DNA from: a virus
Virus record (IMG/VR): IMGVR_UViG_3300034520_000378
Length of the DNA stretch: 64,000 bases
Reading direction: 5' to 3' (one strand)
Positions 8,034-53,599 of the stretch are shown here, in pieces. The first letter of the stretch is position 1; each line of letters begins with the position of its first letter. A program made the translations under genes and the position numbers. The notes below the pieces were generated by a model. The model did no database searches, was not told the origin of the DNA, and saw nothing but the letters and a program-made list of their open reading frames with translations.

Positions 8034-9109
8034 GACGTTGAAATCACAAGCGAAAACCTGTGATCCGTGGACGGGAAAAACAGCATGTCCTGCGGCCGCT
8101 GCACCTTTACCCAGAACGCCGCATAACCCCCGGCTTCAACCTGTGGTATGTACACGCTCTTGTCGTAATACCCCGGAACACCGCCAACATCAGGCGCAAG
8201 CAGCACCCATTTGTCACCATGTGCCGTGTTAAAGTTGGTAGCATACACGGACACGTTTGCTACAGCCTCCGTCCCGGGATTGTATATCTCCAGCCGCTTT
8301 TCAACCGTCCCATTCATCAAGCCGCCAAGAAACACTTCATCACCCGGCAAAACCTCTACACCGTCGTTTATGAGCTTAAGGTCCAGTGTGTTGTACCAAA
8401 ATATGTCCCCACCAAATATCTCAGTGAGCCCAGTGCTGGCAACCAATACACCGCCGCTGTCGTAAACGCTTATCTGGCCCTTCACAGCAAGACCGATAAG
8501 CCCGATGTTTATCTCGACAGCACCGTTGACAGGAACACTGGATGCAACCGTGGTGCCATACTCATTAGTAACTGCGACTGTATAGCCGCTCGGCACATTG
8601 CCAACAAATATGGAAGACGCCCTGACCACAACCACCTCTTCCACGGTCACGGGAGATACGCCATCGGCATATACGCCCGGCAGCGGGTCCTTCGATATAA
8701 ACGCAGTGCCCACTACCTCCCATTCATTCCTGCTTGATGAATAGGCATATGCCTCGCACCTTTCATCCTTCACACAAAACCTAAGCCTGTCATACACCCT
8801 GTCCGTCCCAGATACAAGGGAGAGATAAATTGCCTCATCATCGCTGGACCACAGCACAAGGCCGGCGCTGTCATCCAGGGAAGACGGCAAGTACCGGAGC
8901 TTGACTTCAACGGCATACTGATAGTTCAGTCCTCTGCAGGAAAGCAAGGCCAGGACAGAACCATCCGGGCTCAATGATGGATCCATCCGGAGCCCTTCCG
9001 GTGTCATAGCGTAGTAATCGCCGCTCGGCGACAAAATCCATTCCGCCCCCACTGACTCGAACCTTGTCCTGTATATAAAGCCGCTGCTTACCAAGTCTAT
9101 CCTGGCCAT
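8030..9109 (-). CDS. Virion structural protein, beta-rich (possible lectin-like domain)
   Basis: 359-aa ORF coupled to its neighbours in the structural operon. Confidence 0.55.
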   Translation of the reverse strand: MARIDLVSSGFIYRTRFESVGAEWILSPSGDYYAMTPEGLRMDPSLSPDGSVLALLSCRGLNYQYAVEVKLRYLPSSLDDSAGLVLWSSDDEAIYLSLVSGTDRVYDRLRFCVKDERCEAYAYSSSRNEWEVVGTAFISKDPLPGVYADGVSPVTVEEVVVVRASSIFVGNVPSGYTVAVTNEYGTTVASSVPVNGAVEINIGLIGLAVKGQISVYDSGGVLVASTGLTEIFGGDIFWYNTLDLKLINDGVEVLPGDEVFLGGLMNGTVEKRLEIYNPGTEAVANVSVYATNFNTAHGDKWVLLAPDVGGVPGYYDKSVYIPQVEAGGYAAFWVKVQRPQDMLFFPSTDHRFSLVISTS

Positions 9110-9132
9110 CGCTCAACCTCCAAGCTTACAGC

Positions 9133-9348
9133 TTATCCGAGCGTGAGTACCATCCTCTTGTCTATCTTCTTGCAGACCATTATGGAATCGGAGCTCACCT
9201 TCTTAATGAGCTCTTCACAGACGCGCTTTGCGTCGTGTATAGAGCGGTATATGCCGTAGACTACCCATACGTCATACGTTGTGCTTGATACGTTGTACCC
9301 GAGCGTAGCACTCGGTTTCACAAACACTACATACTGGACGTTAGTCAT
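9133..9348 (-). CDS. Hypothetical protein
   Basis: 71-aa ORF with GGAGG RBS, in operon. Confidence 0.6.
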   Translation of the reverse strand: MTNVQYVVFVKPSATLGYNVSSTTYDVWVVYGIYRSIHDAKRVCEELIKKVSSDSIMVCKKIDKRMVLTLG

Positions 9349-9354
9349 GGATTT

Positions 9355-11916
9355 TTACCTCCCAAGTCTCGGTCTTTTACCTAAGTTGAACAACCTGGTG
9401 CCTTTTACCTTCCCCTCATGGTGCAGGTCATAGTACCTCTTAAGCATGCCGATGAGCATATCGACAGCCTCGTAGCCGTTCACGTTCTTGGGCGATTCAA
9501 TGACCTGCGCCGAGCGGAACTTAACATAGTCTACCTTCATCCCGCTCAACTCCATCCGGTCTTCTTCCGATTCTGTATGAAATTCGAACAGAATGGTGTG
9601 GTTACCTTTGGGAAGGTCGGCTTCGGCTCGGGCCAGCGACGCGAGCAGATAGCTCTTGTCCTGACCGTCTACCGTCAGCTTTGCAGCTGCAGTGCCCGAT
9701 GCGTTAGTTATCGCCACCGTGAACTCAAATGTCGTCGGCAGTAGGTTGGCTATGTTTATCTCGAGCACCGCATCCTTGGCCTGTGTAGCGTACACCAGCT
9801 TATCCCTGTCAACCGCCCACCCGTCAGCACGAACTATATACGACCTATCGTCTTTCGGGATGCCATCCTCAAGGTTGAGCGACTGTTCGTGCGAGATCCA
9901 CGGTTCGTACTCCCGAACAAGGAAGTAGTTATTGGTCGACACTATCACATACTCGCTGTACCAGCGTACCATCCTGAATGCTCTCTGGTACTCTTCCCTT
10001 TTGTAATCAAACTGCCTCAATTTGTTATATAACCTGTCTATGGCAACACGGACTGCCTCACCAGGCGGCAGCTTTTCGTAGCTAAATGTATTCTCCTTGA
10101 GGTCCCTGTAAAGAAGCAGCATGACGTCCCTTAAGACCCATAGATGGACATTGACTATCTTAAGCCCCACGTCAGCATATTTACCAACAGGGTGTGAGGC
10201 GGGGAACTCTACCATAACTTCCGGTACGTCAGCGGGACTAAGCGGTTTGTACGGCTCCCCGGTCTTGGGGTCGTAAAGAAGCGCAGTGTCATACTTAAAG
10301 TCAACGGGCGGCAGCTGCAGCCTGTCCACCCGCTCGCTGTAGTCTCGAAACAACTCCTCCCACAGTGCATCCCATGAAAGGCCGCGCGGAACACATAAAA
10401 GCTCTGCACTCGACACCTCGCGCTCTAAACCCATGCCCTCACTTACAGCAGCATCATCGGGAGCGAGCTCGACCGGCTGTGCAGCACCCGCAGTACCCAC
10501 TTCTTTGTCCTGCTTAAGAACCGCTGTGCCATCAAGGACTTCACCTGCTAGTGCTCTTGTCTGCGCATCAACTGCTCCGTCGAGTTCAGCACCGCTGTGC
10601 GTCACAGTCTCAACAGGAGCGCTGTCAAGCATACTCCCGGGCAGCGCAATCGTCCGCGCATCAACCATTCCGTCAAGCTTGGCGCCATAATTGGCTGCAG
10701 TGTTGGTTTGAAAGCCGTCCAGGATTGTTCCGTTCAGCAGCATGCCCTGCGCACCAACTGCTTTGCCAAGTTCAGTGCCACTGTGTGTCGCAGCACCTGC
10801 AGAAACAATATCAAGACTGCTGCCTGCCCCTCTGAACAGCCTGGAAAGCGCAGTCGTGGACTGAAAAACGTCCACCACCTTGTGTAGCCTGGAAAATGGG
10901 ATGGATAAATGCATGCCATCCTGAGCAGAAACCTCGGTCAGTTTTCTTGCAGCAGGCGCACTATCAGTTAGCCTAACGCCACTGCGAGATACAGCACGCT
11001 CCAGTCCCTGCGCATATTTCTGTATGAGAGCGTTAGAAACACTCTTGCTGCCGGTCAGTACAGAAAACTTACCGCCCCTGGTCCGGTCTCTTTCACCATA
11101 ACCAGGAGTCAGCTTTGCTGTGCCGCGCACTGCGCCTCTGTCAGCCGAACTATGCTGGACTGCGAACGCGCCGCCAGCACCGCCTTCCATCGCTCCGGCA
11201 ACGCACTGGCGGAAAGCCGTCCTGCTGCCCAAATACCTGTATCCAGTAAGCTGACTAATCTCGGCTTCTCTCGCATAGTAGTACTGCGTGCTGACAGGTG
11301 TATGAATTTGGGTAATACCGCGCAGGTCTGTCACGGCGCCCTGCGGCATACAGCTGTGAGCCGCAGTGAACACATCTCTACTAGCCGACTGATGTGCATG
11401 GACATCGGCTTCTCTTGTGCTTGTCCTCTCCGTTTCTCCCTGGACTATAACCTCTGTGCCATTACGATTTTCGGTATGCGCTAGCTTATCACGGAACAGC
11501 TCAGCCTGCTCACCAATGGCCACGGTCCCGTGCGGCAGCTCATGCTTGTCTGCTGCTCTGGTTTCACCCCGCACCACAGCAGCCGCATCCAGCTCTCTCA
11601 CCTCTGTATGAACAGCCGGTTCCATCAGTACCTCGGATAAGGCACTAATACTTCCGGCGCTTTGTGGAGGCGCAGCCGTGTCCTCTCTATCATCCAAAAC
11701 ACGGGCCGGCTTTCCATTGGCATGCATGCTGAACGCTCGAAGCAAAACCGAGTCGGCGTCCTTTATAACAGCCGGAACCGGCGCGGGATGTTTACCGGAA
11801 TCAAATATGCTGTAGGGCAGATACCTTACAGGATACGCTCCAGATGTGTAAATAGGAGACACGGCGGTATAGGCCGCCATGTCTCCCTCAGTGCTGAAAC
11901 GCACGGTACAGTACAT
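9355..11916 (-). CDS. Large structural protein with low-complexity/31-aa repeat middle
   Basis: 853 aa; three imperfect repeats (THSGTELGKAV/NYGAKLDGMV/THSGAELDGAV) at ~10530-10800; C-terminal beta domain LPKGNHTI.FEF. Confidence 0.6.
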   Translation of the reverse strand: MYCTVRFSTEGDMAAYTAVSPIYTSGAYPVRYLPYSIFDSGKHPAPVPAVIKDADSVLLRAFSMHANGKPARVLDDREDTAAPPQSAGSISALSEVLMEPAVHTEVRELDAAAVVRGETRAADKHELPHGTVAIGEQAELFRDKLAHTENRNGTEVIVQGETERTSTREADVHAHQSASRDVFTAAHSCMPQGAVTDLRGITQIHTPVSTQYYYAREAEISQLTGYRYLGSRTAFRQCVAGAMEGGAGGAFAVQHSSADRGAVRGTAKLTPGYGERDRTRGGKFSVLTGSKSVSNALIQKYAQGLERAVSRSGVRLTDSAPAARKLTEVSAQDGMHLSIPFSRLHKVVDVFQSTTALSRLFRGAGSSLDIVSAGAATHSGTELGKAVGAQGMLLNGTILDGFQTNTAANYGAKLDGMVDARTIALPGSMLDSAPVETVTHSGAELDGAVDAQTRALAGEVLDGTAVLKQDKEVGTAGAAQPVELAPDDAAVSEGMGLEREVSSAELLCVPRGLSWDALWEELFRDYSERVDRLQLPPVDFKYDTALLYDPKTGEPYKPLSPADVPEVMVEFPASHPVGKYADVGLKIVNVHLWVLRDVMLLLYRDLKENTFSYEKLPPGEAVRVAIDRLYNKLRQFDYKREEYQRAFRMVRWYSEYVIVSTNNYFLVREYEPWISHEQSLNLEDGIPKDDRSYIVRADGWAVDRDKLVYATQAKDAVLEINIANLLPTTFEFTVAITNASGTAAAKLTVDGQDKSYLLASLARAEADLPKGNHTILFEFHTESEEDRMELSGMKVDYVKFRSAQVIESPKNVNGYEAVDMLIGMLKRYYDLHHEGKVKGTRLFNLGKRPRLGR

Positions 11917-15267: not shown

Positions 15268-16296
15268 CTAAACTACCTCCTTTCCAGAAATATACTGAGA
15301 CCGCCAGGAAACAGAGGTTAATACCCGGCAATCCTCGGGTTTCACAGTTCGTGTGACCCTCTTCCCTGTTTTGATGTCGTGCAGGCTCAGTCGACCGTTT
15401 AAGTGGCCGCCAACGTAGCAGAGGCCCCACCGCAGGTGCTTCACCAGTGTGCCGCGCTTGAGCCCCAGGCTACGAGTACCGCCGTAAGGCCTCCTGATTC
15501 CACCCTCCTCCGGCTCCAGGCGGTGCAGCTGGCGGCGGTGGAACCGCAATGGAACCAGGTAGTAGAGCCCGATGTGGTCGGGGTGTTCGGCGCCCGACAC
15601 GGAGGCCGCCAACACCCAGGCGTCCACGCAGTGGGAGAAGAAACTCTTCTTTCTTTTGTCGCCGTTCTTCTTGAGGCCGAACGCTTCCCGGAGCTGTTTC
15701 GTCTCGTGACCCTGCCTCAGAACGGGCTCGAACCCCAGCTCTCCCAGCTTCCGGTAGAAGCATTCCTTCCCCACCTGGACAGGGGAAAAGCTCCTGTTCC
15801 AGCGGCGGCTCCCCTTCTTCATCTCTGCCTTGACGTCCTCCACCACAATGTGGGAGATGGGAAGTATCCTGAGTAAGTCCCGGATTATCCTCAGCTTCGC
15901 CTCCCACCTCGCCCGGGTTGACGGGGGAAGGGTGTTACGCCCACGCAACCTCTCGGGCTTCGTAACCCGGCGACGGGTCTTGCGGTAACGCCTGGCGCGG
16001 CGCATCCGCCTCCTCTGCTCCACGGCCTTTTTCACGTGGGTTACGGCTTCCGACATGATGTTCAGAACGGTATGCTTTGTGCCCACTACGGAAGTACCCT
16101 CGAACTTGCTGCCCGGGTCCTGGCCAAGTGCAAGGATTTGATTTGCAGGCTCCACTTCGTAGGTGAGTTGGATGTAGAATATGCCCAGCTTGCTCCGCTT
16201 TGGAAGCGCTTTACCCCGCTTCAGGAACAACCTCGCCTTGGCCGGATGGCAGGGCATGAGGGGCCTTCCACCGGCGTCGACGACGGGAATGCGCAT
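15268..16296 (-). CDS. isrB: IsrB RNA-guided nickase
   Basis: 342 aa; PLMP motif, RuvC-I GQDPG, Arg-rich bridge helix RRMRRARR, RuvC-II VVEDV, RuvC-III SHCVDA; no HNH or CxxC. Confidence 0.85.
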   Translation of the reverse strand: MRIPVVDAGGRPLMPCHPAKARLFLKRGKALPKRSKLGIFYIQLTYEVEPANQILALGQDPGSKFEGTSVVGTKHTVLNIMSEAVTHVKKAVEQRRRMRRARRYRKTRRRVTKPERLRGRNTLPPSTRARWEAKLRIIRDLLRILPISHIVVEDVKAEMKKGSRRWNRSFSPVQVGKECFYRKLGELGFEPVLRQGHETKQLREAFGLKKNGDKRKKSFFSHCVDAWVLAASVSGAEHPDHIGLYYLVPLRFHRRQLHRLEPEEGGIRRPYGGTRSLGLKRGTLVKHLRWGLCYVGGHLNGRLSLHDIKTGKRVTRTVKPEDCRVLTSVSWRSQYISGKEVV

Positions 16297-37549: not shown

Positions 37550-37574
37550 ATTCGACGTCCACGCTAATTTTCCT
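37550..37574 (-). promoter_or_regulatory. sigmaH-like promoter
   Basis: AGGA-AAAT..GTC(N17)-GAAT. Confidence 0.65.
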
Positions 37575-45571: not shown

Positions 45572-45612
45572 ACATATACCCCCTCCCGGATCCTAATGTG
45601 GTACATTACATT

Positions 45613-45637
45613 ATTCTACACTGATAGTCATTTTCCT
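45613..45637 (-). promoter_or_regulatory. sigmaH-like promoter
   Basis: AGGA-AAAT..GTA(N17)-GAAT about 40 nt upstream of the 45571 start. Confidence 0.65.
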
Positions 45638-46067
45638 CCTGTTCAGAACAGAATTCGGAATGAACACAAGACAGCGTAAAAGTGAACTTGTATGAGCGAA
45701 ATCATGAAGAACCGGAAAGCTAGAGGTGGCAGGACTTAAAGTGCGTATAAACCCTGCAGAACATGGAAGTCACGCCTAAAGGATAATTTGTGCGGGAGAA
45801 ATCCCGAAGGGCAGGATGCTGAAGACAGCAGCGCGCTAAAGGGGATTTTGCACGGACGAAATCCTGAGGGGGCCACCTCTCTCATCACATCGTTTCTCGC
45901 CCGTTTTGGCCCCCTCCCCCTTTGTTACCCCTCCCTCCCTGCTTCCACCTTCCTCCTCCTCGCACCACCGCTCCGCTCCCTCTAGTTGTGTGGGTGCAAT
46001 AAATCATCCCCCGTTGACAGTCCGTTGAGCCGTGCGGCGGGCCGAGGGGGCAGAGGAGGTGGTTAGC

Positions 46068-46572
46068 ATGGCAGTCAGGTTTTCAGCTGTTGTTAGTGAG
46101 TTGAGGGAGGCAGGGTACATACCCGAGGGCATCGAGGTGTTTGTGGGGTCTCCGTGGGGCCCATCGGCGGTGCTGCCCCTGGAGTGCACCCGGGAGGAAA
46201 GAGAGTTTATGGAGCTCCAGGTGGGGATTCACCTGCCGGATGAGCTGGACCCCGAGGGCTGGGGGGGAAGACGCGCAGTTGGAGCTGCAGCTCCTCCGCG
46301 ACAAGCTTACCCAAGCCGGTCTACCCGATGACGACCTAGCGTTAGCCAGGTTCTTCGTGCTCCACGAGGTTGGCCACTGGGTCCACTTCATACAGGAAGG
46401 CGAGCTTCCCTTTGCAGAGGACCTTATCCTCCGCCTTGGGCTCCTCGTCGATGCAGAGGAGCAGGGCTGGAGCGATGAAGAGGCGGCCCGTCAGTATAGG
46501 CAGCTGCCAGTGGAGGTGCGGGCAGGCGCCTATACCTTGGAACAACTGAAACAGCTGTACGGGCGGAGCTGA
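46068..46572 (+). pseudogene. Zn metallopeptidase-like gene (HExxH) frameshifted in a G7 tract
   Basis: The RBS/ATG frame joins the HEVGH..E..A frame if G7 at 46261-46267 is G6. Confidence 0.7.
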
Positions 46573-46676
46573 AACAAGGCTCCGCCTTTTCTTGTTTTGC
46601 TGGTGAAATAAAACAACCCCGATGAAAGCTCACTCTAGCATGCGGTGAGCTGAGGGGATGTAAGGAGGTGATTAGC

Positions 46677-47045
46677 ATGCTGAAGATGATTCCTGATGTC
46701 GATACAAAAGCGCTGGAGGCGGTTATTGTCCGTCTCGCAGCTAGGATCAAACAGAAAGGAGATTGGCCGGTAGAGCCGACTATTGCCGAGTGGAAAGGCT
46801 TCCGGCTCTGGGCGGGAGTCACGCCGAGGCAGGGGTTCCGGCGGGTCGTTATTACCCCGTCCGGCAAGGCGTCCTGGGCGGTCACGTTAATCGACGCCAA
46901 CCCCGCCAAAGTAAGGCAAGCCGAACACAAGGTCATGGTGTACCTCACCATTGGCCTGAGGCAGGTCGTCGGCCAGGTCGACTTCAGCGGCCGGCGCCCC
47001 CTGCTCAGATGGTTCGGAGATCGAAAGGAGGTGAAAGCATGCTGA
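46677..47045 (+). CDS. Hypothetical protein
   Basis: AAGGAGGTG RBS before ATG 46677. Confidence 0.7.
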   Translation: MLKMIPDVDTKALEAVIVRLAARIKQKGDWPVEPTIAEWKGFRLWAGVTPRQGFRRVVITPSGKASWAVTLIDANPAKVRQAEHKVMVYLTIGLRQVVGQVDFSGRRPLLRWFGDRKEVKAC

Positions 47046-47197
47046 AGAAGTACACGATCAGAAAGGGCAGCCTGGCCTGGTGGATCTCCAAGCTGCTGCC
47101 CTGGCTCGGATTGGCGCTCTTCCTCGTGGTCCTGGGGCTTATCGGCCACGAGGAGCTGAGCATTTATTGTCAGCGGCATTACCTGCCACTGCCGTAA
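47039..47197 (+). CDS. Small membrane protein (52 aa)
   Basis: AAGGAGGTG RBS; MLKKYTIRKGSLAWWISKLLPWLGLALFLVVLGLIG. Confidence 0.65.
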   Translation: MLKKYTIRKGSLAWWISKLLPWLGLALFLVVLGLIGHEELSIYCQRHYLPLP

Positions 47198-47355
47198 GGG
47201 AGGGGACGCACTGTCTCCTCCCTTTTCTTGTTTGTCACACAGAAGAGCTGAATGGGACCGGCCGCTGCTCCGCATCCCCCTAGCTCTCCGGGTGAATAAA
47301 CTGCCCCGTCCCGCTTCCCCATGCGGCGGCACGGGGAATGAAGGAGGTGACAAGC

Positions 47356-47847
47356 ATGGGTTGCTTTGAAGCGCGCATGTGGCTTCAGCAGTTCTGGGAC
47401 CGGCATGGCCGGCTCCCACAGACTCAAGAGGTACCCATCGAGCACAGCCGGTACCTCCGCGGTTTCAAGGTCGTCCCGGTCGGCTGGGAGTTCGAGCTCC
47501 GGCTTGCCAGTGCCCTTGCCGACCTAGGGCTGTATGTCTACCCCTACAGCCCCGAACAGGACAGACAGGGGGTAGATATCTCGTTCGAGCTGGGCGACTA
47601 CATCGTCGACCTCCAGCTCAAAGCATGCAGGCCGTACCTCAATGTCGAGCTCCTTGGCTGGCACTGGCGCTCCCCATATGTGTTGGTCGAGGCACCCTAC
47701 CGCGGTGGCGAGCTCCTCACCGCAGAGGTGGAAGCAATCGTAGGCCGCCTACTACGACTGCTCGACCTCGACTACACAGTCGTGCCAGCCTGGGCTCCCA
47801 AAACCGTCCTCTGCCGCTCGTGCCGTTCCTACCGCCGTTCTCGTTAG
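47356..47847 (+). CDS. Putative PD-(D/E)xK-fold nuclease
   Basis: E..L...L..LG..DRQGVD.SF......DLQLK motif. Confidence 0.5.
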   Translation: MGCFEARMWLQQFWDRHGRLPQTQEVPIEHSRYLRGFKVVPVGWEFELRLASALADLGLYVYPYSPEQDRQGVDISFELGDYIVDLQLKACRPYLNVELLGWHWRSPYVLVEAPYRGGELLTAEVEAIVGRLLRLLDLDYTVVPAWAPKTVLCRSCRSYRRSR

Positions 47848-47849
47848 TT

Positions 47850-47878
47850 ATTGTACCACAGGGGAGACAGGAAGTCAA
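47850..47878 (-). promoter_or_regulatory. Antisense sigmaA-like promoter embedded in a terminator arm
   Basis: TTGACT-N17-TACAAT with TG extension on the minus strand. Confidence 0.65.
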
Positions 47879-48154
47879 GCCCCCCTCCTGTCTCCCCTGT
47901 TCTTTTTGCCTCCACTGCTCCGCACTGATTTGTTGTTTGGGTGAATTTAGTCTCCGAGCCGCGCCGGTTGGTTGGATGAGCTGGCACCGGGAATACATAA
48001 GCCGGGCCGTAAGTCATGACGTCGCCAGCCGGTCACCTCCTCTTGCGCCGGGAGAGGAGGGAGCGACTCCCTGTAACCCCTTTTGCCAGAAGGGACGCAG
48101 GGAGGGTAATAGCCACGACGGAGAATCAAACAGGCATGAAAGGAGGAGATAACG

Positions 48155-48490
48155 ATGCTGAAGAAAGTGTGGGGCCTGCTCAAGCAAGGTGCCCTCGCCG
48201 TGGCTAAGGCAGTCATGAAAGTTGCTGCTTTCCTGTACAGCCTTGCAACCGCCTTGAAAGCCCGGCTGGCTACCGTCCACCCGCTGCTGCCGGTAGCCAC
48301 AGCACCCGGTGTGGCTTACGCAGCCTATAAGGGCGCCCAGCTGTTTATGGCCTTCTGGGCTATCCTGCTTGCGCTGCCGTTCGGCCTCCTGGGTGCCCAG
48401 GGGCTCGTGAACGCTGTGGTCTTTGTGACCATGCTGCTTGTTCCGTTCACAGTAGCCGGCCTCTTCTTCACCCTGGTGGAGCAGAAGTGA
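48155..48490 (+). CDS. Hydrophobic membrane protein
   Basis: 111 aa, AAGGAGG RBS. Confidence 0.65.
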   Translation: MLKKVWGLLKQGALAVAKAVMKVAAFLYSLATALKARLATVHPLLPVATAPGVAYAAYKGAQLFMAFWAILLALPFGLLGAQGLVNAVVFVTMLLVPFTVAGLFFTLVEQK

Positions 48491-48506
48491 TCCACTAGGG
48501 TGAAGG

Positions 48507-48691
48507 TGGAACGAACCATACTATGGCTAGATATAGCAGTATGGTATGGTACATCCACATACGTGGAACGAACCAATACTATACTGCTATATCTAGATCC
48601 CTGTTCTGTTAGAAGGGTATATAGAGTACCGTAAGCTAAGAAGCTCATATGAGCTATATAGCTTACGGTATGTTTAGTATGGTTCGTTCCA
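48507..48691. repeat. Nested inverted-repeat (four-way junction) element
   Basis: 17-bp perfect outer IR enclosing 16-bp and 12-bp perfect IR hairpins and a small hairpin. Confidence 0.85.
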
Positions 48692-48809
48692 GGCCAGCTT
48701 TATTCTATACCCTCGCTCCGCTCGGTTTAGCTGTTTAGGTGACTCTGCCGGACCCGGTGAGGCCGTGTGCGGCCGGTGGAGGCGTCCGGCACAGAAAGGA
48801 GGTGTTAGT

Positions 48810-49346
48810 GTGAATCGGATTGCTATTATTGGCACCCGGCATCCCGCGCCGGAGGCAGCGGAGCTTATCGTCCGGATCGCCCGCGCCTTCCGTGACCTGG
48901 GCTGGACCTTGGTCACAGGCAATGCGGACGGCGTGGACAGCCTGGCGCGGGATGCGTGGAACGAGACAGCGCCGGAGCGCGTGCTGCTGTTCCTGCCGTG
49001 GCGCGGGTACAATGCAGCATACATCCACCCCCGGAACCGCGTGATCGTGTTTGACCCGCAGGTGCACCGGGTGTGGCACGACTCAGTGGCTGTTTACCAT
49101 CCCGCTGCTGAGCGCCTCTCCCCTGGCGCGGTCAAGCTCCACGCCCGCAACTATGGGATCGTGGAGGCGGCCGACGTTGTCATCGCCCTGCCCAACGACA
49201 GTATCGAGGGCGGTGGGACTGGCCAGGGGATCCGGGTGGCTCGGGCGATGGGCAAACCGCTGTTTGTCCTGCCCGGCGACCTGGAGGCGCTCAGACAGTT
49301 TTACCGCCGGGCTCGGGGACTAGCTTTCGTGCCGCACCGGGGCTAG
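48810..49346 (+). CDS. SLOG-superfamily (DprA/Smf-like) protein
   Basis: IAIIGTR, VTGNADGVD, LPW.GYN, HARN, GGTGQ..R.A. Confidence 0.8.
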   Translation: MNRIAIIGTRHPAPEAAELIVRIARAFRDLGWTLVTGNADGVDSLARDAWNETAPERVLLFLPWRGYNAAYIHPRNRVIVFDPQVHRVWHDSVAVYHPAAERLSPGAVKLHARNYGIVEAADVVIALPNDSIEGGGTGQGIRVARAMGKPLFVLPGDLEALRQFYRRARGLAFVPHRG

Positions 49347-49444
49347 TCTCCTCTCGTAAAGCCCAGTGCCCCCACGGGTGTCTCTACTGCTATTGGAAGG
49401 CGTAGAGGCCCCGTCGGGGCTTTTTTGTTGTACTCCCCTCTCCC

Positions 49445-49693
49445 TTATACCCTCTCCTCTTTCTCCTCCCCTCCTTTCTCCCTGCAGCAGTGATGATCCG
49501 CCCGCCGCAGTCGCCGCGCCCGCCTCAGCTCCTCATACATCTCCTCCCTACCCCTCTCATATCCCTGTTCGTACACATACCTCACCAGAGCTTCTACCGT
49601 CAGCGCCTCAAGCCGTCCATCACGCAGCATGTTGTATACCGTAGCCCTGCTCACGCCGAGCAGCTTTGCAGCCATCGTCGCACTTACCTCCAT
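49445..49693 (-). CDS. Small helix-turn-helix protein (excisionase/HTH_17-like)
   Basis: SATMAAKLLGVSRATVYNMLRDGRL; AAGGGG RBS before ATG 49693. Confidence 0.8.
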   Translation of the reverse strand: MEVSATMAAKLLGVSRATVYNMLRDGRLEALTVEALVRYVYEQGYERGREEMYEELRRARRLRRADHHCCREKGGEEKEERV

Positions 49694-49707
49694 CGTGATA
49701 CCCCTTC

Positions 49708-49894
49708 TGTCTAAAAGTGTCACATTAGTCCACTGGATTAACATCACTTCTTTAGACACCTCTATTCCGTATATTACCCCCGATCTCAAAATGCCGCATC
49801 CCATCGCCGTTTTCGCTCCCGCTCTATACCGCATACCTCTCTCTGTCTAAAAGTGTCGCCTTAATCCACTGGATTAACACCGCTTCTTTAGACA
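49708..49894. repeat. Two 51-bp palindromic direct repeats
   Basis: 49708-49758 and 49844-49894, 46/51 identical; TGTCTAAA..TTA(G/A)TCCA-C-TGGATTAA..TTTAGACA. Confidence 0.9.
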
Positions 49895-50182
49895 CACAGC
49901 TCCCCTCCGCTGGCTGTAGTGTGATTTAACCAGCCTCCGGCTTACTTTAGTCCCCTTGAGTGAAGCTGCGGAGCCGGTAAACTACTCCTCCCCGGGTGGG
50001 GTGCTATGGTGGTTGCAAAAACGCCCGCGGGACGGTAGGTCGCGACACGGGCGGCACGACCCCTCTTCGCTTCCCGTTGCCGCCAGCGCTCCGCGCTCCG
50101 TAGTCTGAACAGCAAAATTACGCAGCGGCAATCGGGATATATACCCGCACACCGGTTGTCGTTGCTGTAGGAGGTGAGAGAT

Positions 50183-51058
50183 ATGTGCGGGAGAGCTCCA
50201 AGAGATAACCATCTGATGGGGGTTGAGCCCCCGGTGACGGCGATGGTGGTGGTCGCCGCAGACTTGCGGCTGCCGGGTGCACCGGTGCGTACTTGGCAGT
50301 TGGCGAAGGGAGGTGAGTTGGTAATTGGCGTGGCACTGGTGGAATTCAGGAATAGGACAACCGTTGGGTATATCACCACGGTTGATCATATAGGGGAAAT
50401 TCGATGGCGAATCGAGGCCGGCCCGATGGGGGTATATGCCACCCAGAGTGTTATGCCCGGCCAAGAGTGGAGTCACTTCCTGGACCCGCTTGGGAGAGAT
50501 GTTAGTCCGTATGTGCACGCTGCCGTGGCCCGGGCGGCGGCGGAGCTGCTGCGGCTGGATCCGGGTAAGCCCCTTGGGGACAGTAGGTTTAGTGGCGTAA
50601 GTCAGTGCGTGGCGTGTCATGCGTTTAGGATCTTGCCGCAGGGCGATCAGGTTTTAGGAGACGCCGAGGGATGGGTGCGCACGCCCAGTACTGGTGATCT
50701 CCGCGACAGGGGGTTATGGCAGGCTGAAAGGTACTATTGCGTTGTCCGCCATGAGACGCCCGAGGATATAGAGCGTCTTGTGGCGAAGGCCAATGCGGAA
50801 TACACGAGGGGATGGAGCGCCCCCATCCTTCCCCTCCATTATGCGGGAGAGGAGTGTCCGTACTTCCTCCCGAAGGGAGCCGGGCGCCGCGGTGGTTTCC
50901 CGGCTTGGGAAGTCCCCGGTGGCCAGATCTCGAGCGATAATGTCGACATCGTTGACCGGGATGGCGTCAGGACTCTGCGTGTGCGAGCAGGGTTCTGGCA
51001 GGTTGAGGTGCCAGTGAAAAAGAATACCCCGTGCGCACACACGGGGCAAAAACAGTAA
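50183..51058 (+). CDS. Hypothetical protein with scattered Cys motifs
   Basis: AGGAGGTG RBS; CVAC..C..CPYF. Confidence 0.6.
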   Translation: MCGRAPRDNHLMGVEPPVTAMVVVAADLRLPGAPVRTWQLAKGGELVIGVALVEFRNRTTVGYITTVDHIGEIRWRIEAGPMGVYATQSVMPGQEWSHFLDPLGRDVSPYVHAAVARAAAELLRLDPGKPLGDSRFSGVSQCVACHAFRILPQGDQVLGDAEGWVRTPSTGDLRDRGLWQAERYYCVVRHETPEDIERLVAKANAEYTRGWSAPILPLHYAGEECPYFLPKGAGRRGGFPAWEVPGGQISSDNVDIVDRDGVRTLRVRAGFWQVEVPVKKNTPCAHTGQKQ

Positions 51059-53570: not shown

Positions 53571-53599
53571 TTGACTTTGTGTCTCGCATATGGTACAAT
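53571..53599 (+). promoter_or_regulatory. sigmaA promoter
   Basis: TTGACT-N17-TACAAT with TG extension. Confidence 0.7.

Follow-up and report, generated by a model that had tools for sequence, protein, structure and literature searches.

A clustered two-box motif as a candidate lineage-specific promoter class in a jumbo phage related to 0305phi8-36

Five copies of a bipartite motif, GCTCCGC-N16/17-GGTG, were counted in the window analysed here, a 64,000-nt stretch of a 172.7-kb virus record that is cut at both ends and has a CheckV completeness of 80%. All of them lie on the plus strand, between genes and within a span of <2.8 kb. The likeliest reading of the five sites is that they are promoters, and their sequence setting makes this probable, since terminators stand upstream, a leader hairpin and a ribosome site stand downstream, the genes that follow are unrelated to each other, and a sigmaA-type promoter is absent. 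That they form a lineage-specific promoter class of the 'middle' type directed by a phage-encoded sigma factor is a longer chain of reasoning, which we regard as plausible rather than probable.

An earlier note on this DNA had placed GCTCCGC at positions 45970, 46579, 47267, 47917 and 48715, followed by GGTG after 16, 16, 17, 16 and 16 nt, and all positions and spacers were recovered exactly on the plus strand, with C, A, A, A and A as the next base. The AATAAA reported after GGTG(C/A) was present in copies 1–3, the T(A/T)G(C/T)T of the spacer was found in 5/5 copies, 10 nt upstream of GGTG, and the intergenic, single-strand placement also held for 5/5. Copy 1 (45970..45996; GCTCCGC-N16-GGTG(C)AATAAAT), with an ATG at 46068, 71 nt downstream, is the first promoter-like site on the rightward arm. 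Copy 2 (46579..46605; GCTCCGC-N16-GGTG(A)AATAAA) is followed by an ATG at 46677, also 71 nt downstream, copy 3 (47267..47294; GCTCCGC-N17-GGTGAATAAA) by an ATG at 47356, 61 nt downstream, and copy 4 (47917..47943; GCTCCGC-N16-GGTGAATTTA) by an ATG at 48155, 211 nt downstream, which leaves a long leader. Copy 5 (48715..48741; GCTCCGC-N16-GGTGACTCT) precedes the GTG of a DprA/SLOG-like gene at 48810, 68 nt downstream. Copy 1 is overlapped solely by a weak 65-codon TTG frame, which we do not take for a gene. In copy 2, GCTCCGC doubles as the 3' arm of an upstream terminator hairpin (46561-46587), a feature absent from the earlier note. A possible but uncertain sixth copy of degenerate form was found on the plus strand at 50088..50117 (GCTCCGC-N6-TAGTCTGAAC-AGCA-AAATTA), upstream of a gene at 50183-51058; it carries the first box and a TAG at the matching offset, without GGTG.

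With the spacer relaxed to 14–19 nt (GCTCCGC-N14-19-GGTG), five copies were observed, whereas 100 dinucleotide-preserving shuffles averaged 0.41 and never exceeded 3. Alignment of the five copies showed 16 positions of the promoter part to be invariant, namely a C at -4, GCTCCGC, the T-G-T-T of the spacer and GGTG, and AAT stands at a constant 27–28 nt from the GCTCCGC box in every copy. Mean column identity of the whole alignment was 41%, with invariant boxes and diverged spacers and flanks. On the same strand downstream lie gene 1 (46068..46572; two frames, split at a G7 run at 46262-46268), genes 2 (122 aa) and 2b (52 aa, hydrophobic) at 46677..47197, gene 3 (163 aa; 47356..47847) and gene 4 (111 aa, hydrophobic; 48155..48490), all of no known family, and gene 5 (178 aa; 48810..49346), a DprA-like/SLOG Rossmann protein. 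Gene 2 has a homologue in the relative G001:C2 at 41% identity, and the closest homologues of gene 5 are found at 99% identity on a 213.6-kb contig and at 66–76% on others. Comparison of the six downstream proteins detected no mutual similarity (best cross-hit E=0.64). Because the boxes are invariant, the flanks diverged and the proteins unrelated, the conservation of the motif does not derive from gene duplication.

Upstream of every copy is either an intrinsic terminator or a block of non-coding DNA, and downstream are a leader hairpin and a strong ribosome site. T-tract terminators lie directly 5' of copies 2, 3 and 4 on the plus strand, after gene 1 (46561..46597, 10-bp stem), after genes 2/2b (47196..47234, 13-bp stem) and after gene 3 (47858..47908, 15-bp stem and 13-nt loop), respectively. 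The structured leaders described earlier were present as hairpins that start 2–20 nt downstream of the GGTG box, but their gain in stability over shuffles was only 0.75–2.1 sd, which is statistically not strong; Rfam searches returned sub-threshold miRNA-like hairpin matches only. From 45572 to 50182, no match to a sigma-70-type (sigmaA) promoter was detected on the plus strand. Canonical TTGACA-17-TGnTAcAAT promoters precede other genes on the same arm, indicating that the sigmaA of the host is an ordinary one and that the motif class is different. A further canonical sigmaA promoter lies on the opposite strand of the terminator at 47858..47908 and runs antisense through genes 3-1, which fits a motif class active at a different time from the sigmaA promoters. 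Two invariant words, GCTCCGC and GGTG, at a fixed 16/17 spacer, in a gap ahead of a same-strand gene that lacks an alternative promoter, are what is generally expected of a two-box promoter of the sigma-70 family.

A scan of the whole record, in line with the advice of the earlier note, showed that the motif is confined to the cluster in the 172,670-bp record, with just two stray exact matches beyond the five, both probably due to chance. One is on the plus strand at G000 136433, where GCTCCGC lies downstream of GCGGAGC, with which it probably forms a terminator hairpin, and GGTG serves the following gene as its ribosome site, and the other is within a gene on the minus strand at 15530. An equal occurrence within genes and on both strands, named beforehand as evidence against a promoter, was not seen in the record, and a weight-matrix scan of the whole record added no further copies. 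In four candidate host-like Bacillota genomes, the motif occurred 4–7 times per genome vs. 3–14 times for a reversed control. Being cluster-confined in the record and at control frequency in these four genomes, the motif is supported as phage-specific. Across IMG/VR, GCTCCGC-N16/17-GGTGAAT gave at least 120 matches, single and scattered as expected by chance, and a same-strand cluster was not found among the matches listed; IMG/VR also yielded no relative for genes 6 and 7 or the phage sigma. The sole match in a structural-protein search for relatives was a 17.9-kb fragment. The DprA-like gene was located at 106 loci in three collections, with the exact motif at 5/106, never in multiple copies and never upstream of the DprA-like gene, indicating that this gene travels without the motif cassette.

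The factor reading the motif had been proposed to be a phage sigma factor, RNA polymerase or activator encoded outside the window. A search for sigma genes there found one, the only one in the record (G000:C1:3602-4447, minus strand, 281–283 aa), 60 kb left of the window. No phage RNA polymerase gene was found with T7-type, YonO/RdRP-type and 0305phi8-36 ORF099 queries. Its product matched Sigma70_r4 at 36.6–39.3 bits and PHROG 351/1740 'sigma factor'. The region 4 helix-turn-helix scored above the curated cut-offs (PF04545, 36.6 bits vs. 24.1; PF08281, 27.2 vs. 25.7) and was nearest to FliA (42.6 bits by profile), followed by sigmaF and sigmaB. Region 2 scored 13.8 bits with PF04542, under its cut-off, and the NCBIfam sigma70 superfamily model covered residues 97–266 at 44.5 bits (cut-off 42.9). 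In a structure model, residues 14–157 formed a confident helical domain, and the top fold matches were all sigma factors, at E>=0.005. A homologue of 78% identity is carried on a 2.2-kb contig, and the protein is 27% identical to ORF193 of 0305phi8-36. A second Sigma70_r4_2 match, at G000 150452-151282, was identified as a LAGLIDADG/HTH homing endonuclease and not a sigma factor. The promoter of the sigma operon is canonical sigmaA, TTGACA-N17-TGATACAAT.

In the preferred reading, GCTCCGC would serve as the -35-like and GGTG(A/C)AAT as the -10-like element of a lineage-specific promoter class, and transcription would start ~5–10 nt past AAT, at the foot of the 5' hairpin. Each site would produce a short, mostly monocistronic transcript ending at its own terminator, and the block, which opens the rightward (replication) arm of this 0305phi8-36-related jumbo phage, would have a host-takeover layout. 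The likeliest reader would be host core RNA polymerase bound to the two-domain phage sigma of G000:C1:3602-4447. As this sigma is made from a canonical sigmaA promoter, the motif class may be 'middle', switched on after early transcription. A fuller version, in which a sigma common to 0305phi8-36-type jumbo phages drives a private GCTCCGC-N16/17-GGTGAAT promoter and a five-gene takeover block in a thermophile-associated member, is held more doubtful still; it comprises a two-domain sigma with a long acidic linker and a FliA-like region 4, hairpin leaders, and a takeover block that opposes an early antisense sigmaA promoter.

Several observations weigh against pairing the motif with the phage sigma. 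The distant relatives G001:C2 and G005, which have the sigma and the DprA-like gene, carry different upstream elements, and the gene 5 orthologue of G001:C2 sits downstream of a sigmaA-like TGTTACAAT, a hint that genes of this kind can simply be early ones. The phage sigma might just as well act at the -10-only GGTARTATA sites of late type, of which 8 are on the late strand vs. 1 on the other and three are in intergenic gaps; these sites are not enriched in G005 and G001:C2, so that conservation favours neither class as the target of the shared sigma. Furthermore, a regulon of five targets would be small for a sigma factor.

A competing reading, which we judge somewhat unlikely, is that the promoters are read by a host sigmaH-type factor, with a phage or host activator at GCTCCGC replacing the AGGAWWW contact, or by another host minor sigma. 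Of the earlier statement that the motif matches no sigmaA, sigmaH or sigmaD consensus, the sigmaH part was right for the -35 element, which is absent, but the sigmaH -10 RNNGAATWW is exact in 2/5 copies, as GGTGAATAA in copy 3 and GGTGAATTT in copy 4, with 1, 1 and 2 mismatches in copies 1, 2 and 5. It is because GGTGAAT(W)(W) fits RNNGAATWW that an activator-assisted host factor resembling sigmaH has to be weighed. Host alternative sigmas also appear to be in use by this phage. Two canonical sigmaH-type promoters (AGGAAAAT-N12-GTAGAAT and AGGAAAAT-N12-GTCGAAT) serve cargo genes, and one of the two, at 45637 on the minus strand, shares the divergent gap that holds copy 1, and a sigmaD-type promoter precedes the phage flagellin gene; genes at the head of such a block are, moreover, often expressed ahead of any phage protein. 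However, AGGAWWW at 11–12 bp upstream was present at the two canonical sigmaH-type sites and in 0/5 motif copies, the conserved box being C-rich and ~4 nt further out. The full motif was also not enriched in the four candidate host-like genomes, possibly not the true host, and the sigmaH reading calls for a still hypothetical activator.

We consider it unlikely that the sites are no promoters at all, but operators bound by a regulatory protein, or a cassette for RNA processing or stability within a longer read-through transcript. The invariant T-G-T-T of the spacer would be unusual for a plain sigma promoter, and an HTH_17 regulator, with operator repeats of its own (49708-49896), is encoded 700 nt downstream. 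The relative G005 has 10 inter-gene cassettes that are nearly identical, contain a covarying hairpin and leave hardly any space for promoters, which demonstrates that repeated RNA-level cassettes exist in the lineage. Against these points, strong T-tract terminators precede copies 2–4, with nothing else there to restart transcription, the boxes are non-palindromic and dissimilar to the operator repeats at 49708-49896, and a consistent pairing partner for GCTCCGC was not seen in the leaders.

It is improbable, in our estimate, that the promoters are read by a phage factor outside the record, whether an additional sigma, a single-chain RNA polymerase of the YonO-like kind, such as ORF099 of 0305phi8-36, or an enzyme delivered with the virion. 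Another factor may be missing, since both ends of the record are truncated and only ~80% of the genome is covered, and a contig of 213.6 kb encodes the protein 99% identical to gene 5. In 0305phi8-36, the polymerase gene adjoins the block of small monocistronic genes, but tblastn with its ORF099 gave no counterpart in the ~80%-complete record. The YonO/RdRP-type domain PF05183 had no match in the record or in the complete genome of G005, with a control matched only below the cut-off, and the T7-type polymerase PF00940 had none in the record, in a search that was also silent in every control genome. Two boxes at 16/17 spacing are, further, a layout read by a sigma, whereas the 0305phi8-36 motif is a hairpin.

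The remaining promoter types were dismissed, as an extended -10 (TGn + AATAAA) would require a final T that is missing and does not hold for copies 3–5, none of sigmaB (GTTTAA/GGGTAT), sigmaF/G, sigma-54 and ECF (AAC/CGT) fits both halves of the motif, a hairpin promoter would need consistent pairing around the boxes, which is absent, and for sigmaA neither TTGACA-16/18-TATAAT (A2, T6 of the second hexamer) nor any consistent hexamer pair is present.

That a phage sigma has a promoter of its own is a textbook principle, so the gain is incremental; the sequence described here is new. If the phage-sigma reading is true, a transcription map of three or four classes would be obtained for the record, comprising sigmaA promoters with a TGTGTCTC box, the motif class, the -10-only late sites, and host sigmaH/sigmaD promoters on cargo. 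It would cover a giant-phage lineage for which the literature examined contained no transcription experiment, and would assign a job to a sigma undetected by the founding paper of the lineage. The promoter/sigma pair, which is short, portable and derived from phages that infect thermophilic anaerobes, could then be used as an orthogonal expression switch.

Compared with known systems, the motif partly resembles the sigmaH promoters of Firmicutes (RNAGGAWWW-N11/12-RNNGAATWW) in the -10 half, with an exact fit in 2/5 copies, while their -35 half is absent from it. Promoters of sigma-28/FliA (TAAA-N15-GCCGATAA) have a similar layout, with a short -35 word, a spacer of 15–16 nt and a long -10 word, and their -10 word, like that of the motif, starts with G and contains GA followed by A/T. 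Neither word matches the motif, however, and the true sigmaD form is seen at the phage flagellin promoter. In the Bacillus phage SPO1, the takeover genes have strong sigmaA promoters, and the gp28 promoters read AGGAGA-N17/18-TTTNTTT. Here, in contrast, a candidate non-sigmaA class sits on the small-gene block, and the phage sigma has no detectable relationship to gp28. The likeness to SPO1 lies in an arm-head block of small genes, each with its own promoter and terminator, and, as proposed here, in an early-made phage sigma that would redirect the core polymerase of the host to a two-box promoter private to the phage. In SPO1, the cascade proceeds from sigmaA (early) through gp28 (middle) to gp33/34 (late) (PMC13401047), and its host-takeover layout has been cited as a precedent (PMC2147016). 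For the Bacillus phage 0305phi8-36, 21-bp 'phage-specific promoter candidates' were described and proposed as a middle class in a paper that recognised no sigma factor in this phage (Hardies et al., 2007; PMC2147016), although its ORF193 matches the sigma found here. The 0305phi8-36 motif, in 12 copies, is built from an invariant CGTTCGCACG enclosed by a covarying stem of 4–5 bp, with TTTTGTA after it, and has no sequence or architecture in common with GCTCCGC-N16-GGTG, where the CGTTCGCACG stem and the T-rich tail are absent. Nevertheless, the two phages belong to the same lineage, as indicated by the related sigma and by RecJ, common to both, and each has a repeated, phage-only motif in the gaps before small, apparently monocistronic genes.

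The five copies of GCTCCGC-N16/17-GGTG, at 45970, 46579, 47267, 47917 and 48715 on the plus strand, were rechecked, and the positions, spacers and following bases reported for them in the earlier note were all as stated. A looser form of the pattern was found 5 times, vs. 0.41 in shuffled sequence. The box-anchored alignment contains 16 invariant positions, namely a C at -4, GCTCCGC, T-G-T-T in the spacer and GGTG, and the remaining positions have diverged. The AAT after GGTG is a constant 27–28 nt from the first box, because copy 3, whose spacer is one base longer, has one base less between GGTG and AAT. A rescan of the whole record added only two matches, both chance-like by their setting: one has a first box resembling a terminator arm and a second box resembling the ribosome site of the next gene, and the other is inside a gene on the opposite strand. 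Weight-matrix and one-mismatch searches returned no further copies; at 50088 there is possibly a sixth, degenerate copy, in which GCTCCGC and the TAG offset are retained and AGCA stands in place of GGTG.

The window corresponds to bases 64238–128237 of a 172,670-bp IMG/VR record that is cut at both ends and about 80% complete. By a simple gene call, a leftward arm extends up to 45571 and holds structural genes and a low-GC cargo block that includes genes for flagellin, a nuclease and a Type ISP restriction enzyme; a sigma factor, RecJ and a primase-like gene are encoded at its far end. The rightward arm runs from near 46000, with small genes first, and then SSB, an SNF2 helicase and replication genes. 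Gene 1 is split into two overlapping frames (46068–46331 and 46240–46572) at a G7 run (46262–46268); possible causes are a sequencing slip, slippage and true breakage of the gene. Through its sigma factor and RecJ, the phage is linked to 0305phi8-36, a jumbo phage of Bacillus, and to the relatives of that phage, and the homologues of the DprA-like gene 5 in Moorella and Desulfofundulus point to a host among the thermophilic Firmicutes that form spores.

Judged from their sequence setting, copies 1–5 quite likely function as promoters. Strong terminator hairpins with a T tract end genes 1, 2/2b and 3 (46561–46587, 47196–47224 and 47858–47908), the next ribosome site (AGGAGGTG) follows 90–250 nt past each terminator, and the motif is the sole conserved element in between. 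A consensus scan of the plus strand from 45572 to 50182 found no sigma-70-type site. Good TTGACA-17-TGnTAcAAT promoters head at least eight further units of transcription in the rightward arm; therefore, the phage uses ordinary sigmaA promoters elsewhere and something else at the motif. The six proteins downstream of the copies have no mutual relationship, which argues that the module they share upstream has been maintained by selection as a regulatory cassette and is not a relic of gene duplication. Leader hairpins start 2–20 nt past the second box, and since folding gives them modest z-scores (-0.75 to -2.1), the promoter argument leans on hairpin position and not on energy. Transcription starting 5–10 nt past the AAT would place a stem-loop at the extreme 5′ end of every mRNA, and 5′-terminal stem-loops are mRNA stabilisers in Firmicutes.

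As for the factor that reads the motif, the earlier note had proposed one encoded outside the window. One sigma factor gene was indeed found in the record (G000:C1:3602-4447, minus strand), but no polymerase gene. A polymerase of YonO/RdRP type, or like ORF099 of 0305phi8-36, was not detectable in the record at its about 80% completeness; T7-type polymerase (PF00940) had no match either, an uninformative result, as the search gave no match in any of its 14 control genomes. Region 4 of the sigma exceeds Pfam cut-offs, its PHROGs assignment is sigma factor, and its match to the NCBIfam sigma70 superfamily narrowly clears the cut-off. The predicted structure comprises a confident helical domain (14–157) and a helix-turn-helix (225–267), with a long acidic linker of low confidence between them; its top fold matches are sigma factors throughout, weakly, and by profile region 4 is closest to FliA, then sigmaF and sigmaB. 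The family is rare, with 8 clusters in a large protein collection, and ORF193 of 0305phi8-36, annotated as hypothetical, also matches it.

The sigma gene shares a minus-strand operon outside the window (G000:C1:9768-1478) with RecJ and the primase-like gene, a frame of 369 codons (8769–9768) that heads the operon and was missed by the gene call. The operon promoter, TTGACA-N17-TGATACAAT, is of textbook sigmaA type, carries GTGTCTC in its spacer and is preceded by a terminator, so the sigma is expected early, from the host sigmaA polymerase; the GCTCCGC class would follow second in the cascade. That the phage sigma reads the motif is our favoured single guess, and a tentative one for the whole chain, each step of which we infer. 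Alternatively, the sigma could serve late, -10-only GGTARTATA sites, which have a strand bias of 8 to 1, with three in gaps.

A real rival to the phage sigma is a host sigmaH-like factor that reads the sites with an activator on GCTCCGC. The earlier statement that the motif matches no sigmaH consensus holds for the -35 word, which the copies lack, but not for the -10, as the form RNNGAATWW is exact in copies 3 and 4 and near in copies 1, 2 and 5. However, besides the missing -35 word, the exact motif was not commoner than its reversed control across the four candidate host-like genomes, which speaks against a common host promoter and is compatible with a regulon of few genes or with another host. 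Canonical sigmaH-type promoters are present on the minus strand, AGGAAAAT-N12-GTAGAAT at 45637 before the gene of a 520-aa membrane protein and AGGAAAAT-N12-GTCGAAT at 37574 in the gap that precedes the Type ISP restriction gene, and both belong to the cargo block.

A canonical sigmaA promoter, TTGACT-N17-TGGTACAAT, lies on the minus strand at 47878–47850, inside the terminator hairpin after gene 3, and is directed antisense into genes 3–1 and onward to the leftward cargo block, which argues that the sigmaA and GCTCCGC classes are not meant to be co-active. Its -10 recurs in three plus-strand promoters (53591, 70227 and 79261). The word (A/T)TGTGTC(T/C)C was observed on the plus strand at 53577, 58770, 67479, 70192, 79247 and 103744, where the rightward arm has six promoters of sigmaA type with the word in the spacer or just 5′ of the -35; together with the GTGTCTC form, it is probably the operator of one regulator.

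A gene for an HTH_17 regulator of 82 aa (49445–49693, minus strand) lies between the block of small genes and gene 6. It adjoins two direct repeats of about 55 bp (49708–49760 and 49842–49896), each a nested inverted repeat (GTCTAAAAGTG ... TTAATCCACTGGATTAA ... CTTCTTTAGAC), and the arrangement resembles that of a repressor and its operators. Upstream of copy 5, an AT-rich non-coding block (48490–48700) carries GGAACGAACCATACTA three times, two direct and one inverted, and the word TATGGTTCGTTCC is found again in a gap 32 kb off (~80780); this element could be an iteron, an origin or a nuclease site.

The sigma and the DprA-like gene are both present in two distant relatives, G005, whose 261-kb record is complete and has terminal repeats, and the 173-kb G001:C2. 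In G005, ten near-identical inter-gene cassettes of ~100 nt precede small genes on one strand within 8.3 kb (L021, G005:C1:74249-82507), each with three hairpins, one of which has a GAGTAGCYGR loop on a covarying 5-bp stem; two additional copies retain the first (GAGTAGCYGR) hairpin, with the remainder swapped. G001:C2 has terminator-plus-hairpin leaders, one clearly homologous to that of the phage record (CCCATGCGCCGCC...GGAGGTGACAGGCATG), but its upstream words are unlike those of the phage record, and its gene 5 orthologue is preceded by TGTTACAAT. The 211-nt leader of copy 4 (47944–48154) and that of the first rightward gene of G001:C2 (L235:12250-12620) have the blocks GAGCCGCGCCGG, GGAATACATAAGC and GAATAGCCRCGAC in common; we read it as a long 5′ UTR that has been conserved, Rfam gave no match to it, and the proteins downstream in the two phages have no detectable relationship. 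The published 'phage-specific promoter' of 0305phi8-36 was recovered in the right arm (L006 and L236) as a 21-bp motif, a covarying stem around an invariant CGTTCGCACG and then a T-rich tail, which could equally be a terminator or hairpin-type signal. Thus, each lineage has its own repeated signal before small genes; the idea is common to the lineages, the sequence not, and the motif would add a new consensus to a well-known type of phage regulation.
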